64,000 bases of DNA. It comes from Chiloscyllium plagiosum. Lineage: Eukaryota. Position 1 is the first letter of the stretch; the number at the start of each line of letters is the position of its first letter. The DNA lies in assembly GCF_004010195.1 (NCBI RefSeq), contig NC_057728.1, forward strand, positions 18,389,852 to 18,453,851. The letters run 5' to 3'. The notes under the pieces are model-generated. The model was not told the origin of the DNA. It made no database searches and saw only the letters and a list, made by a program, of their open reading frames with translations. The translations under genes were made by a program, and so were the position numbers. Positions 1,090-54,795 of the stretch are shown piece after piece.

Positions 1090-1193
1090 CGTAACAGCAT
1101 TATTGAGCAGCCTATCCTTCATCTCCAGTTGTTCATGTTCACTCTTTAATTCGCTCCCTCGTTTTAACAGCTTCCTCTTCTCCTCCTCTTTCA
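1090..1193 (-). CDS. PHF21B: PHF21B coiled-coil exon: (V)KEEEKRKLLKRGSELKSEHEQLEMKDRLLNNAVT; final exon expected beyond position 1
   Basis: 104 nt, ttttcag| and acg|gtgaga, phase 1-0. Matches PHF21B KEEEKQKLLQRGSELQNEHQQLE. Confidence 0.94.
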
Positions 1194-5311: not shown

Positions 5312-5387
5312 CCGCTTTATGTGCAAGATAGGAATGGACGATAGCGAGGGTTCCAGGCCATGATACGTTATCTTCCTTCTTTAATAC
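5312..5387 (-). CDS. PHF21B: PHF21B coding exon: VLKKEDNVSWPGTLAIVHSYLAHKA
   Basis: 76 nt, atacag| and cgg|gtatga, phase 0-1. WPGTLAIVHSY is a PHF21 motif. Confidence 0.95.
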
Positions 5388-9064: not shown

Positions 9065-9181
9065 TCAAATGTTGCTGCGATGCTGAAACTTTCTAATCCA
9101 TTTAGCTGAGAAATTCACTTTATTAACTAGCTTAAAAGTGATAAGCAAAATTATTCTAATGAACAGAAGTTGAGTCTGTAC

Positions 9182-9337
9182 CTTTTCCTGGCACCTGGGG
9201 CAGACCCACACCCCCTTGGGAATGGTCTTGAGAGGAGGTTCTAAACATTCCAGATGATATACACGAGAGCAAGTGTCACACAGAAGAAGTTGACCACTAC
9301 GTTTGCACACTGTACAGTAATCCTCATGAATATCATC
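9182..9337 (-). CDS. PHF21B: PHF21B PHD-finger exon: [52 protein letters not shown]
   Basis: 156 nt, ttttttaag| and aag|gtacag, phase 0-0. Complete C4HC3 PHD signature. Confidence 0.96.
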
Positions 9338-9606
9338 CTTAAAAAATGAAAAAGAAATGACTATATTAATTGAAATAAATTTCAGTGTACTGCAGAATGG
9401 TATGCTGAATCAAGTTTGGAAATTTTGATTGAATGAAGACTTAAATTTGAACACAACTCCACATCAACTTGCATCCAACATCATGATGCTACCATCAAAA
9501 GACATCTTCACCCCTTGCTCTCCTCTTGGCCTGGGGAAGGGCCAAGGGAACAGTTGCCGTTTTACTACTACTTCTTCTTAACTGAACAGTGAATTGTTTA
9601 CATGCC

Positions 9607-9960
9607 ATACACGCATCACCCTCTGTGTGAAAAAGTTGCTCCTTGGGTCCCTTTTACCTTTCCCCTCTCACCCTAAACCTATGCCCTCGAGTTCTGGACT
9701 CCCCCATCCCAGGGAAAAGAGCTAGTCTACTTATCATATCCATACCCCTCATGATTTTATAAACCTCTATAAGATCAACCCTCAGCCTCCGACACTCCAG
9801 GGAAAACAGCCCCAGCTTATTCAACCTCTCTTCATAGCTCAAATCCTCCAACCCTGCCAACATCCTTGTAAATCTTTTCTGAACTCTTTCAAGTTTCACA
9901 ATATCCTTCCTATAGGAAGGAGACTGGAATTGTATGCAATATTCAAAAAGTGGCCTAACC
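9607..9960 (-). mobile_element. CR1/HER1-type LINE ORF2 C-terminal fragment
   Basis: ORF LVRPLFEYCIQF.SP.YRKDIVKLERVQKRFTRML..RTRGH. Confidence 0.9.
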
Positions 9961-10991
9961 AAACTGAAACTTGGAACTGCTCCCACTCTGCAGGAACTAC
10001 CTTACATAACTATGCCAGTTATTTGCCTCTACTGAATATTCCAGCCATAACATCTTTACCAACTAAGCCTCTGGAGAACTTCACTTAATCAAAACAGTAA
10101 ACAAAATCAATAGTCATATGGTCATAACTTGTCACATTTGGCAACTAACCACCAGCTTCCCAAAGGTAATTAGGGACAGACAATAAATGGTGGCCTAGCT
10201 AATGACACACACACACATTCATGAAAGAAATAATGAAATGTTGGTAATTTTAACAGCAAGTCCCTTTAAACCTCATTTATTTGTATTTTTTTAAGATAAT
10301 GACAAAACTATTTTGTTTTATGCTCAAACCAAAATGAGTAAATCTTGTTTGCCATATACAGTTCTATATATACTTGAAAAGCACTTTATGAAAAATTACA
10401 AAAATTCATATGAATAAACAGAGTAGTTGCAGATGAGCTGCAGTGGAAGTGCAAGGATAAAATAAGACGGAGCAGAGTGGCATACCATGACAGCAAATCT
10501 GGCAGTAGGTACAAACAGCAACAGCAAATATTTGTTATAAGGATGGCATGGAAAATGAAAGCTTAGAGATCATGCCTTTTTATGTAATACAGCACCATAG
10601 ACAGCAGCTCTAGAAAGACAGCTCATCATTTATATCTTGGTATCAAACCATGCTGGTGCTAAATAAATACCTATTATAACCAACTATTGCACGATTTGCA
10701 TGTCCAAACCTTTGTCCTTGAAATTCTGCTTTTCATAAATGTAATGCTTTCCTAATAATCCTTACTGATTCATTCAATATAGCTGCAAATCTCTCCAATA
10801 TGCTTATCTAATGGATTGTCCTATTAATAAATATGACAATTTAAAAGCAACAATACATTTTCAGATACATCACAAACATGTTTAAACATAAAGCTAGAAC
10901 TTGTATTATACTGCTCATGTCTTGCAGTAATAAAAATTTTTGATTGCCAAGAGATTTACACAGTAAAAGTCACTGAATGGATGAGACATAC

Positions 10992-11014
10992 CTTCCAACA
11001 TAGGTCCTCATTGG
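10992..11014 (-). CDS. PHF21B: PHF21B 23-nt microexon: (A)NEDLCWK
   Basis: cacgcaag|CCAATGAGGACCTATGTTGGAAG|gtatgt, phase 1-0, restores the frame between the flanking exons. Matches recalled PHF21B ANEDPCWK and the PHF21A neuronal ANEEHWPK. Confidence 0.9.
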
Positions 11015-11044
11015 CTTGCGTGTTAAGGAGAAAGGTAGAAACAT

Positions 11045-11051
11045 GTTAGTA
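11045..11051 (-). promoter_or_regulatory. Perfect TACTAAC branch-point consensus upstream of the microexon
   Basis: Minus strand reads ctcTTACTAACatgtttctacctttctccttaacacgcaag|exon. The putative branch A is about 32 nt upstream of the exon and is followed by a pyrimidine tract. Confidence 0.7.
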
Positions 11052-14000
11052 AGAGCTGATTTGTAGAGCAGGCTGGGAATTAGGATAATATGGATTCCAC
11101 AAGTGGACCAAATACAAGTAATGATTGGAGCTACTTGGATCATCCAGAGGATATCATACTATGAGGACACTGATAATTAGACAGTACACAGAACTGCCTT
11201 CAATAGGAATGCAGGAGAAGTTGTTGGGGACGGGTGTATGTGGGAGATGTATCCTGCCCTATCATGTATTGTTTCTTCCATTTATACACCAGTTTCAAAG
11301 TAGATAAAAATTTGATAATTCCCTGGTTTAAAAGTTATCTTTGGCTAAGTAGCTCAGTAAATATCTGAATTCAAAATATTCAGGTCAGAAATGAAGTTCG
11401 CTTGTTTCCTTAGAAAGATAACATTTACACTGATACTTAATACTTGCACAAAAAATAGTTCACCTTGTAGCTTCTCAGTTACTTCTTTGCCCCTGTGCTT
11501 GTAAGCATTGTTCTGTGATGTCAAACGATTTAAAAAGAATTCAGTCACTGTAAGGTATTTATGGTTGCAATTACCCAAGTACATTGTCCAAGTTGCCAAG
11601 GAACTATTGCATGAGTTATCATCTTGACAAGATAGAATCTAACCAACTACCCTTGAAATTCAATTGCATTACCCATCACCGATTCCTTCACTACAGACAG
11701 AATATCTCATGAAAACTGAAAGTGTCTGAAAACAGACATTCCTTTTGCCTGCACTCCAAGTGGTTTAGCCAACCTCATCCAATCCAATCTGGAAAGGTTT
11801 GGGGAAGATGCTGCAAAACCTTTAAATCCCATGGGCGCTGGTTGCCTTCTCGCAGTTTGTCCAACTCAGTTCAAAGAGATTTACTAAGAGTACTGTATAA
11901 TCTTAAATTAATTAAAAAAATGTTTTTCAGGTACGACTACTACATAGTATTTTTAATATTATTTCAGCTTGATTGATCTTTTCTCAAAATAAGCAGGGTG
12001 TACTGATGTTGGGAAATGGGAGAGGCATGAGAGTTATGAAATCCAATATGAGAGAAGTGAATTAATATCAGCAGCACATGAACACTTAATTAAAAGTGCT
12101 TTGCAATTATATCATTTGTTTTTTCTGTATGTCCTAATTATTGACTTTGTGGGGGTACCAATATGTTTTATGAAAACTGGCATATTGAACATGACAAAAC
12201 AGGTATGATCCCAAAGTTGCTGGATTTCAGGTACCTATGTCAACTTTTTCAGAAACTGACAGGACCAGTCACACAAATGCTATGGTTACAAGACCAGGTC
12301 AGAGGATGGAAATTCTGCTGCAAGTGATCTACCTTCTGATTCCTCAAAACCAGTCCACCAAGGCATGAGCTAGGAGCATTACAGAAGCTTAATATCACCC
12401 AGGAGAAAGCTGTCTGTTTGATGGGCACCTTATTTACAACCTTAACATGCAATCCCTCTACTACCAGTGCACAATGACAGTATTTACCATCTAAAAAATA
12501 TACTGCAGCAATTTGTCAAGCTTCCTTCAACATCATCTGCGAAAACCTGCAACTTCTATCACCGAGATCTGGCCTGGGCAAACGAAGGTGCAACCCATAT
12601 TTGGTGCACAGCAACCTCTAATCCAGCCTCGAGATAACCACTGGGAAAGCGCACACAGTGCACTGGTAAACTTCAGTGCATGCCAACAACTGCTCCTGGT
12701 GCTTGATAGGTGTGAGAAGCTGAAAGGAGCTAAAATGCAGATTGGGGAGAGCTTCAAGGGAAGCACTTCATGGGAAGAAAAGTATTTGCAGGTAATTTGG
12801 AGTTGACCAGTTATGGGAGTCTGGAGGTGGGTTTTTCTTGGATACTGCACCATCATGTTAAATCAGGAAGTACGTGTGGGGCAACAGAAGAACACAGAAT
12901 GCATACTCACTTAAAATTATTACTCTTTGATTTACTTTCTGGATTTTATACACAATTTCAAAACTTCAATAAAGTATGAAGTGTATGAAAACTAAAGTCA
13001 ATTCTTAAATACAAAGGAGGTCCATTCTAATGTGTTTCAATATACCATGAATTTGCTTATTGCTTGAGGTTTTATGGCAGCCAAAAGAAGCAAATGACTA
13101 TTTAAATCTTCATTTTGTTAGTTAAAAAGGAGAAAGTAAAGAGTTTTCTTAATACGGCCCATACATTATTACATTTTGGACCTCAACATCCACATTAAAA
13201 TGGACGTCCACCATAGTTTTGATGTTCTATTTTTCCAATTTCCTCATTTCAAAGCGCTGATTCTTCACGTCCATTTTGGGATAGTAATACACAGAAGAGC
13301 TCCTTTACTCATTCAAAAGGGCGTAAGATCTGTAATCTAGTCAAAATATTTGCACCTGTATGCCTGTGAATGGCTTAATTTATAAGTTCCCACAGACAGT
13401 TACAGTAGTATGAGGGATGTAGAACTTTAGATAAATGGGCAGTTAAGAAAATATAGAATTGTTCTCCTTATAGCAGAATAAAATAAGGTCAGGTTTAACG
13501 GAAATGTTTAAAATTATGAAGGCTAAATAAGGAGAAACTGTTTCTAGTGCAGAAGGGTCAGTAAACCAATATAGAGGTCATAGATTTATGCGTAATAACA
13601 ACAGAACCAGTGGGTAGTGAAATTGTAGACCTTGCAAAACCTTGATTTCTAATTCTGCTAGTGAACAAAGTATTGAAATATCAAAGCATAAACGCTAACT
13701 GCAATGAACCACAACATATGCATGACTGAAGATCTCCAAAAGCATTCTCAGTTTAATATGGGCATCTCAATGATTATTTTTAAGCACATCCAAAAATTAA
13801 AGCTGTAAAAATTCTTTTTATTCTTGAAGAAGTGCAATTAATATTTATATTTTTACAAAAAAGATGGTAAGTGAAGAATGTTTGGTCTTAGCTAAGTTTT
13901 TTGTATTTTGAGAAATTTGAAAATGAGAAACATGCACCCTAACTGGTCTGGGACAGGTTAATGATGCTGTTAGTAGCACACCTTCTAAAATGTGCTGAAA

Positions 14001-14788: not shown

Positions 14789-16680
14789 GAGAAAGTGAGG
14801 ACTGCAGAGGCTGGAGATCAGAGCTGAAAATGTGTTGCTGGAAAAGCGCAGCAGATCAGGCAGCATCCAACGAGCAGGAGAATCGACGTTTCGGGCATGA
14901 GGCCTTTTTCAGGAATGAGGAAAGTGTGTCCAGCAGGCTAAGATAAAAGGTAGGGACTTGGGGGAGGGGCGTTGGAAATGCGATAGGTGGAAGGAAGTCA
15001 AGGTGAGGGTGATAGGCTGGNNNNNNNNNNNNNNNNNNNNNNNNNNNNNNNNNNNNNNNNNNNNNNNNNNNNNNNNNNNNNNNNNNNNNNNNNNNNNNNN
15101 NNNNNNNNNNNNNNNNNNNNNNNNNNNNNNNNNNNNNNNNNNNNNNNNNNNNNNNNNNNNNNNNNNNNNNNNNNNNNNNNNNNNNNNNNNNNNNNNNNNN
15201 NNNNNNNNNNNNNNNNNNNNNNNNNNNNNNNNNNNNNNNNNNNNNNNNNNNNNNNNNNNNNNNNNNNNNNNNNNNNNNNNNNNNNNNNNNNNNNNNNNNN
15301 NNNNNNNNNNNNNNNNNNNNNNNNNNNNNNNNNNNNNNNNNNNNNNNNNNNNNNNNNNNNNNNNNNNNNNNNNNNNNNNNNNNNNNNNNNNNNNNNNNNN
15401 NNNNNNNNNNNNNNNNNNNNNNNNNNNNNNNNNNNNNNNNNNNNNNNNNNNNNNNNNNNNNNNNNNNNNNNNNNNNNNNNNNNNNNNNNNNNNNNNNNNN
15501 NNNNNNNNNNNNNNNNNNNNNNNNNNNNNNNNNNNNNNNNNNNNNNNNNNNNNNNNNNNNNNNNNNNNNNNNNNNNNNNNNNNNNNNNNNNNNNNNNNNN
15601 NNNNNNNNNNNNNNNNNNNNNNNNNNNNNNNNNNNNNNNNNNNNNNNNNNNNNNNNNNNNNNNNNNNNNNNNNNNNNNNNNNNNNNNNNNNNNNNNNNNN
15701 NNNNNNNNNNNNNNNNNNNNNNNNNNNNNNNNNNNNNNNNNNNNNNNNNNNNNNNNNNNNNNNNNNNNNNNNNNNNNNNNNNNNNNNNNNNNNNNNNNNN
15801 NNNNNNNNNNNNNNNNNNNNNNNNNNNNNNNNNNNNNNNNNNNNNNNNNNNNNNNNNNNNNNNNNNNNNNNNNNNNNNNNNNNNNNNNNNTTTGCTACTT
15901 GGAGAATTAACTGCAGTGTGGGAGAGTGCAGACTCTCTCAAAGAGATCAGTGTCCATATTGTCATGATCGTGATCGCCGCCCACACGATAAATCGTAGGC
16001 TCAAGCATCTCTGCTGCTGCTGTTTTGTTCCAGACAATTGAATTTTCAATGGAACCGAAGAGAGACCGTTATTTCATCGCTGTTGTGAAACAAAGTTCTA
16101 TAGTGACTCTACTAGCCATTATTTTCTGTTTTGGCGAATGGGAAAATTATTCCAATGAATTTCGATGTCATATGTTCTTAAATTTCTACCATTTCTTTCA
16201 TTCTGTTCTGGAGACGGCAGAAGGGAAAGGTAATCTAATCGAGAATGTGGTTGGTGAAATTCACTTTTCATGGCCCATTCTTTTTGTATTCTTTCTTTCT
16301 CTCTTTTCAGCACTTTCTGGGAAATGGCGGTGCACTAAGGCTCCAGGATGTTTGCAAGAGCAGACTGGAATTCCCCTGCTGTTAGTTGCGAGATTAGTAT
16401 ATGGCTCAAGCGCCTGGTTGTGCCCGCCAGAAACTACCCTTGTCTTTCCTGACCTCTCCGCCCCCACCCCACCCCGGTCTATCACCCTCACTTTGACCTC
16501 CTTCTACCTATCGCATTTCCAACGCCCCTCCCCCAAGTCCCTCCTCCCTACCTTTTATCTTAGCTTGCTGGACACACTTTCCTCATTCCTGAAAAAGGGC
16601 TCATGCCCGAAACGTCGATTCTCCTGCTCCTTGGATGCTGCCTGACCTGCTGCGCTTTTCCAGCAACACATTTTCAGCTC
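14789..16680. mobile_element. Family-1 Penelope pLTR insertion with inverted ends and a 13-bp TSD, spanning a gap and non-repeat internal DNA
   Basis: TSD tgaggatttccat at 14776-14788 and 16681-16693. Arms 14789-15020 and about 16437-16680 are reverse complements. Confidence 0.75.
15021..15890. other. Assembly gap (N run)
   Basis: 870 N. Confidence 1.
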
Positions 16681-21874: not shown

Positions 21875-21929
21875 CTCTTGTTGAAACATATAAAGAACCA
21901 TTCAGGTAGCTTGTTGCGATTCGCTTACG
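21875..21929 (-). CDS. PHF21B: PHF21B coding exon: RKRIATSYLNGSLYVSTR
   Basis: 55 nt, ttttcctag| and gag|gtatgt, phase 0-1. Aligns to recalled PHF21B RKRLASNYLNNPLFLTAR. Confidence 0.92.
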
Positions 21930-25381: not shown

Positions 25382-25458
25382 CTCTGGCTCAAACAATCCG
25401 CTGTATGTTGGATTGGCTGTGCTTCTTCTCTTTCTTTCCTGGCGTCTGCTTTGGATTT
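25382..25458 (-). CDS. PHF21B: PHF21B coding exon: (E)[25 protein letters not shown]
   Basis: 77 nt, tgtag| and gag|gtaagt, phase 1-0. Conserved [11 protein letters not shown] basic motif. Confidence 0.95.
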
Positions 25459-27470: not shown

Positions 27471-27522
27471 CTTCCAGGTGCTCTGTTGTAACCAGGCCTA
27501 GTGAGACCATAAAGGCAAGTTT
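27471..27522 (-). CDS. PHF21B: PHF21B coding exon: KLAFMVSLGLVTTEHLE(E)
   Basis: 52 nt, ttttgcag| and aag|gtatgt, phase 0-1. Conserved PHF21-family motif. Confidence 0.95.
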
Positions 27523-30170: not shown

Positions 30171-30706
30171 NNNNNNNNNNNNNNNNNNNNNNNNNNNNNN
30201 NNNNNNNNNNNNNNNNNNNNNNNNNNNNNNNNNNNNNNNNNNNNNNNNNNNNNNNNNNNNNNNNNNNNNNNNNNNNNNNNNNNNNNNNNNNNNNNNNNNN
30301 NNNNNNNNNNNNNNNNNNNNNNNNNNNNNNNNNNNNNNNNNNNNNNNNNNNNNNNNNNNNNNNNNNNNNNNNNNNNNNNNNNNNNNNNNNNNNNNNNNNN
30401 NNNNNNNNNNNNNNNNNNNNNNNNNNNNNNNNNNNNNNNNNNNNNNNNNNNNNNNNNNNNNNNNNNNNNNNNNNNNNNNNNNNNNNNNNNNNNNNNNNNN
30501 NNNNNNNNNNNNNNNNNNNNNNNNNNNNNNNNNNNNNNNNNNNNNNNNNNNNNNNNNNNNNNNNNNNNNNNNNNNNNNNNNNNNNNNNNNNNNNNNNNNN
30601 NNNNNNNNNNNNNNNNNNNNNNNNNNNNNNNNNNNNNNNNNNNNNNNNNNNNNNNNNNNNNNNNNNNNNNNNNNNNNNNNNNNNNNNNNNNNNNNNNNNN
30701 NNNNNN
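30171..30706. other. Assembly gap (N run)
   Basis: 536 N. Confidence 1.
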
Positions 30707-31884: not shown

Positions 31885-32007
31885 CTCGGGATTTTCTTCT
31901 CTCTTTGATTTTATGGAAAGATGGCCCTGAGACTGTTCTCCTGAAGTTTTCCTTTTCTCAGTCAGATGCTCTGTTTGAGTCTGACTTTGTGGCTGAATGA
32001 TTAATAC
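31885..32007 (-). CDS. PHF21B: PHF21B coding exon: VLIIQPQSQTQTEHLTEKRKTSGEQSQGHLSIKSKREENPE
   Basis: 123 nt, tttttgtag| and gag|gtaaac, phase 0-0. Matches the VIIIQPQ...ENPE exon of PHF21B. Confidence 0.92.
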
Positions 32008-35353: not shown

Positions 35354-35698
35354 CTTATCTGTGCTGAGTAGAAGAGGTTGGACACTGATAGTGTCACTGG
35401 TCAGAGAGACTGTACTGCTGCTCACAGAACTGCCATTGTTTGGAGAAGCAGAAATGATTGCAAAAGCCACACCAGCACTGCTGATTGGTGTGGACACCAA
35501 TGGTGAATCTGCAAAATGCTGTGTTTGGCCAGTTGGTGTCTGTACATGGTTGACAGTGTTGTTGGCAGTAGGAAGAGCAGGACTGGGGTTCTTGATGCTA
35601 ACTACAGTGGCCTTCTGAAGAGACTGAGGCTGACTGGAGGTCTGGTCACGGCACAGGGTGACTGAGAGGCTGTCCGGAATCAGGGTCTTTGGCCTAAC
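35354..35698 (-). CDS. PHF21B: PHF21B coding exon: [11 protein letters not shown]...[22 protein letters not shown]...[11 protein letters not shown]...[10 protein letters not shown]
   Basis: 345 nt open frame, ttttacag| and aag|gtaagg, phase 0-0. [11 protein letters not shown] and [14 protein letters not shown] are characteristic of PHF21B rather than PHF21A. Confidence 0.95.
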
Positions 35699-54702: not shown

Positions 54703-54795
54703 CTGAGGTAGCACTGCTGGTCCTTGGCCTGCCAACCTCTGCAATGAGCTGACCTGGGGGACCTTAATGGGCACTGCAGTAATAGTTCCCAGTGT
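54703..54795 (-). CDS. PHF21B: PHF21B internal coding exon (most 5' exon found in window): [31 protein letters not shown]
   Basis: 93 nt, tgcag| ... cag|gtaaag, phase 0-0. Peptide matches recalled vertebrate PHF21[32 protein letters not shown]. Confidence 0.93.

Follow-up and report, generated by a model that had tools for sequence, protein, structure and literature searches.

We propose that a 23-nt microexon in PHF21B is an isoform switch that was turned into an on-switch, with splicing coupled to nonsense-mediated decay (NMD), and we consider this the probable explanation of our results. The ancestral vertebrate gene would have chosen between a default AT-hook exon and the microexon. After duplication, PHF21B would have lost the default exon, and without inclusion of the microexon a cell would make no functional protein. 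In neural cells, where SRRM3/4 probably promote its inclusion, the full PHD-finger protein should be made. If it is skipped, then there would be a stop codon at the junction and the transcript is predicted to be degraded by NMD. We are evenly divided on a broader claim: that deletion of the default exon made the neuronal switch SRRM3/4-gated and NMD-enforced, from shark to human, with PHF21B as the permanently "neuronal-form" paralog that is licensed by the microexon program.

The PHF21B gene and its microexon

We analyzed 64,000 nucleotides from Chiloscyllium plagiosum (this whole stretch is "the window"). We identify the gene in the window as the ortholog of PHF21B, as the first-pass annotation had it: it groups with PHF21B and not with PHF21A. 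Ten joined exons from the window are letter-identical to part of P0177, a record from a Chiloscyllium shark that is named PHF21B. In a 15-row tree, which is unrooted and in which lamprey falls on the A side, six PHF21B rows (from shark to bat) separate from the PHF21A rows with 100/100 support. The same genome contains a separate PHF21A gene, on C16. The features of the PHF21B gene are:

54703..54795, minus strand: upstream coding exon
35354..35698, minus strand: upstream coding exon
31885..32007, minus strand: upstream coding exon
27471..27522, minus strand: upstream exon A
25382..25458, minus strand: upstream exon B
21929-21875, minus strand: exon C, upstream, 55 nt, with a phase-1 donor (sequence reading)
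15021..15890, no strand: assembly gap of 870 N in the intron 5' of the microexon, which could conceal an exon
11051-11045, minus strand: TACTAAC consensus branch point (by motif), predicted branch A at 11046; a single ACUAA, SF1/QKI-type motif
11015..11044, minus strand: pyrimidine tract followed by a spacer with interrupting purines, and the AAG acceptor; no UGC
11014-10992, minus strand: microexon, 23 nt, frame-restoring, A-NEDLCWK (from the sequence; the peptide is in cartilaginous-fish records)
9337-9182, minus strand: PHD-finger exon, 156 nt, phase 0 (sequence reading)
9335-9333, minus strand: TGA, in frame only in the skip form; the next junction is 151 nt downstream (direct count)
5312..5387, minus strand: downstream coding exon, 76 nt (joined-exon match to P0177)
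1090..1193, minus strand: downstream coding exon, 104 nt (joined-exon match to P0177)
L017:6349-6113: last coding exon, beyond the window

A second assembly gap within the introns of PHF21B is at 30171-30706. We also note that the exon for residues ~51-137 (G000:C19:18468205-18468465) is on the opposite strand from the remaining gene. This is probably a local assembly inversion, and it may explain why the model P0177 is short at the N-terminus.

We judge the microexon to be genuine and not a chance feature, and it is already annotated. Its acceptor is ..ACACGCAAG and its donor is AAG/GTATGT. If it is included, then a single open frame runs from exon C into the PHD exon. TACTAAC lies 37-31 nt upstream of the acceptor; the minus strand of the 64-kb window has 8 copies of this motif, and the chance of finding one in a given 23 nt is p ~0.003. 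No other ACUAA(C) is found within 150 nt. Directly before the acceptor is CGC. The first-pass annotation had described the 23-nt exon, the AAG acceptor, the TACTAAC, the CGC, the phase-1 donor at 21875, and the phase-0 PHD exon at 9337, and its description was accurate throughout.

Among cartilaginous fish, 49 PHF21B records extend into the microexon region (two Logan fragments that fall short were left out), and 43 of them contain the 8-residue microexon peptide. The other six records comprise one that extends the peptide, two with a 28-residue alternative, one with an in-frame double skip, and two from elephant shark that stop after exon C. The peptide is also found in shark, ray, chimaera, teleost-like, and mammalian records. 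With its conservation across vertebrates and its length of 23 nt (the class extends to ≤27 nt), this exon likely belongs to the SRRM3/4 neural microexons. A UGC near the 3' splice site is a feature of SRRM3/4-dependent microexons, and the PHF21B microexon lacks it, as the nearest UGC is at -56. However, the nearest UGC to the microexon of shark PHF21A is at -29, so it has none within 28 nt, and because of this, we do not view the lack of a proximal UGC as an argument against SRRM3/4.

The skip form in protein records and RNA

If the microexon is skipped, then the protein would end as ..STR G stop, with the TGA right after the junction of exon C with the PHD exon. NMD is expected if a premature stop precedes a junction by more than 50-55 nt. 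This stop is 151 nt upstream of the next junction, and three exon junctions lie downstream of it (two further exons are within the window, and the final coding exon is outside it), so the skip product is predicted to undergo NMD. These positions agree with the earlier claim that skipping gives a stop at the junction, before the PHD finger and upstream of further introns.

The skip form appears to exist in both sharks and mammals, as read from protein records and from the ends of RNA contigs. Some mammalian proteins end with ..LTAR-ERDHPR-stop, which is what the PHD exon would encode if its frame were shifted by one base. The tails of 7 of 8 mammalian proteins are compatible with one of four references, while random draws gave 0/200,000. 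(Six fit three of the references, one more fits the fourth, which has a different residue, and P0267 fits none.) The human "PHF21B isoform 3" (ALQ34302.1) is a frameshifted skip product of this kind and is found on 46 Logan contigs. In the elephant-shark model P0214, exon C is followed by R-stop and the protein ends, in agreement with the prediction for skipping in that species.

To read junctions from RNA, we aligned four runs (X1, X2, X3, and X20) to positions 9100-11300 of the window; the upstream donor is outside of this reference, and junctions were read from contig ends. X1 carries the same species label as the best DNA matches, and X3 is from another species. (In a run search with the locus, none of the matching runs listed was recorded as RNA.) X1 and X3 each have a spliced contig that aligns to 9179-9339, over the PHD exon, at depths of 24.8 and 31.1. 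By its ends, it lacks the microexon, and it is the main spliced contig in both runs. The end at 9179 is explained by three letters that are shared with the next exon, so the contig alignments run on for as long as the letters match. For the 5' end of the PHD exon, inclusion (..AAG) predicts an end at 9340 and skipping (..GAG) predicts 9339; the Lys codon cannot yield 9339. In X1, 57 nt of the contig precede the PHD exon, as expected for exon C plus the shared AG, while inclusion would give 80; this argument presumes that the record's coordinates follow the strand of the contig itself. (At its 3' end, the X1 contig extends 2 nt beyond an exon end.) Depth in the microexon bin was 0 in X1, X2, and X20, and the depth there in X3 came from an unspliced contig, although a 23-nt piece may not align. 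The matches listed in the four runs include no inclusion junction, with X2 and X20 being uninformative; the inclusion form is seen in annotated models. X20, a raw single-cell run of which about 2% was read, had no reads on the PHD exon. Judged from contig ends, then, the skip form appears to occur in shark RNA in two of the four runs.

We also noticed a LINE-like repeat fragment at ~9600-9960, with a reverse-transcriptase-like peptide, which had very deep coverage in all four runs.

The PHF21A exon pair and the proposed loss of the default exon

Shark PHF21A has a 23-nt microexon (ANEDQWLK), which is separated by 41 nt from the AT-hook exon that follows it (155 nt); the lengths of both are of the form 3n+2. 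(The pair is at G000:C16:61212002-61211784, L011; the human exons are ~7.7 kb apart.) A spacing of 41 nt is likely too short to be spliced, which would enforce mutual exclusivity sterically in shark. Human PHF21A uses its neuronal microexon and its AT-hook exon in a mutually exclusive manner (PMC11864812, PMC11605454); a search of these two papers found no mention of PHF21B. The human microexon peptide is ANEEHWPK (record P0104).

Outside of the jawed vertebrates, lamprey records include a 7-residue microexon-type form as well as AT-hook forms. An AT-hook motif precedes the PHD finger in homologs from a hemichordate, sea urchin, brachiopod, annelid, bivalve (mollusc), and tunicate; the exact motif is absent from the nemertean record. 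(Of the 10 invertebrate homologs that we looked up, 8 have a name in their cluster.)

In PHF21B, we found no AT-hook exon or remnant in the readable introns by motif, tblastn, or blastn (the 870 N at 15021-15890 are unreadable), and the AT-hook is in 0 of the 49 cartilaginous-fish records. We reject a hidden remnant for the readable introns. The AT-hook partner of a PHF21A-type mutually exclusive pair is missing from the readable sequence between exon C and the PHD exon. Since the two isoforms are both found in lamprey and the AT-hook is found in invertebrates, we infer that the AT-hook exon is ancestral, that the microexon predates the A/B split, and that PHF21B lost the default exon. Two claims of the first-pass annotation are upheld here: that the microexon is homologous to that of PHF21A and older than the A/B split (from the exon pair in shark PHF21A and the lamprey forms), and that PHF21B has no alternative partner exon of the PHF21A type.

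Regulation, alternative explanations, and related systems

Published human data link PHF21B to both SRRM4 and NMD at the level of the gene. In supplementary tables of PMC7935315, PHF21B mRNA was higher with wild-type SRRM4 than with splicing-dead SRRM4, by 13.6x in MCF7 cells, 12.5x in DU145 cells, and 11.4x (24 h) or 16.7x (7 d) in SH-SY5Y cells, and PHF21B is listed as SRRM4-induced in just 3 of 6 human lines. The 23-nt exon of PHF21A is in another table of that study, at +93 PSI with SRRM4, and the PHF21B exon is absent from the SRRM4 exon PSI tables in those supplements, among the files besides file 16. PHF21B was also up in SMG7 knockout cells with SMG6 knockdown and in UPF3 double-knockout cells (PMC9108619); the supplements of that study, aside from file 12, have no rows for PHF21B isoforms. 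From these gene-level human data, PHF21B would be SRRM4-dependent and NMD-sensitive. Both rises fit with escape from decay when the microexon is included, and both are gene-level.

We found nothing on PHF21B in the supplements of PMC7821500 (8 files) or PMC13281805 (2 files), in those of PMC11188260 besides file 13, or in those of PMC5630039 besides files 1, 18, and 25-27, which may include the raw PSI table. PHF21B is flagged among 233 "microexon-related genes", as a background set, in supplement file 15 of PMC7935315. In one supplement table, PHF21B in day-50 human neurons was below its level in progenitors (0.45x). The 233 "microexon-related genes" may have been identified as regulators in a screen, in which case the flag on PHF21B would point to feedback.

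It is unlikely, in our view, that the microexon is just a weak small exon that is meant to be constitutive, with skips as noise at low transcription and with a neural or SRRM4 response that is transcriptional. SRRM4 inactivates REST by splicing (PMC7652395), and this could raise the transcription of PHF21B. Also in favor of this reading, the mouse gene is induced during progenitor differentiation; exon-level PSI for PHF21B was in none of the five supplement sets that we searched; and the donor of the microexon is strong and its branch point matches the consensus. However, the non-inclusion contig is the main spliced one in two runs, at a depth of 25-31, which is high for noise, and the paralogous exon of PHF21A is strictly neuronal and SRRM4-driven. 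As for REST, the exact RE1 core has four matches on C19 and none near 18.4-18.6 Mb; this argues against REST at the shark locus and says little about human.

We give still less credence to the idea that PHF21B has an isoform switch rather than an off switch, in which a non-neural in-frame bypass, by skipping exon C as well or by using another 3n+2 segment, would yield a PHD protein without the linker. Exon C and the microexon add up to 78 nt, so skipping both preserves the frame. One Hypanus model has this double skip, as does a partial model of sturgeon PHF21A, and models from Hypanus and Mobula birostris have a 28-residue in-frame alternative exon (83 nt), which is possibly a new, lineage-specific default exon. 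These three stingray and manta models are P0188, P0189, and P0191. Besides the unread gap, the window has open 3n+2 extensions at a GC donor (+68), a GT donor (+32), and an acceptor (-23). (The GC donor, 68 nt into the intron at 21874-21807 on the minus strand, looks strong, and either it or the AG that is 23 nt before the PHD acceptor, 9360-9338 on the minus strand, would restore the frame without the microexon.) The contig end at 9339 also fits with the in-frame double skip or with the 68-nt extension of exon C. But the start of the X1 contig is exactly where a direct junction of exon C with the PHD exon would put it; a search of the window for the ray exon gave no significant match, and a genome search with the same query was also negative; the extension peptides are in none of the 49 records; and frameshifted products are recorded in mammals and elephant shark. 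The interpretation in the first-pass annotation is partly supported. Its reading of regulated skipping agrees with the skip form in contig ends (X1, X3) and protein records and with the gene-level human data, which fit an SRRM4/NMD gate; its switch with no alternative partner holds for the AT-hook exon. But in-frame alternatives to the microexon are in 3 of the 49 records, all from rays, so the switch may be leaky. Least probable of all, we think, is that the skip transcript escapes decay and encodes a truncated protein without the PHD finger, perhaps dominant-negative, or that QKI represses the branch point in place of regulation by SRRM3/4. There is enough of the skip form for contigs to assemble, a human isoform has been deposited, and ACUAA branch points can be repressed by QKI and activated by SF1 (PMC13004596). 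Against these ideas, expression of the gene rises upon loss of NMD and upon SRRM4 expression, and the reporter case for QKI had tandem ACUAAC while the site in PHF21B is single.

Full-length PHF21B models with the microexon and the skip product ALQ34302.1 are already deposited. We found no paper that ties the isoforms of PHF21B to regulation, to NMD, or to the PHF21A event, though subscription papers or VastDB may hold a profile of the exon. What is new is that the skip form appears to be real, the gene-level link to SRRM4 and NMD, and the proposed loss of the default exon. In mouse cortex, PHF21B is a chromatin reader that is needed for the switch from progenitor to neuron (PMC7462064). If the microexon gates PHF21B, then its neural specificity is partly set by splicing, and misregulation of the microexon would abolish the protein rather than tune it. 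PHF21A and PHF21B would then clearly exemplify paralogs that specialized through the loss of one mutually exclusive exon.

The closest known system is exon E14-n of PHF21A (VastDB HsaEX0047035, 23 nt), which has the same position, phase, and length, a similar peptide, and the same flanking upstream and PHD exons. PHF21A has an in-frame default exon, E14-c, and swaps isoforms, whereas no default exon is found in the readable part of PHF21B and skipping shifts the frame. Exons 19 and 20 of Parp6 (PMC7652395) resemble the PHF21B microexon in that inclusion keeps the frame and skipping gives an early stop, far upstream of the last junction, with predicted NMD. Dependence on SRRM3/4 is at the exon level for Parp6 and at the gene level only for PHF21B, and only for PHF21B do we propose an origin by loss of the mutually exclusive partner. 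Exon 11 of RAI14, at which QKI and SF1 compete for ACUAA, is likewise an alternative exon with ACUAAC where its branch point would lie (PMC13004596); its elements are in tandem, while PHF21B has a single putative site.
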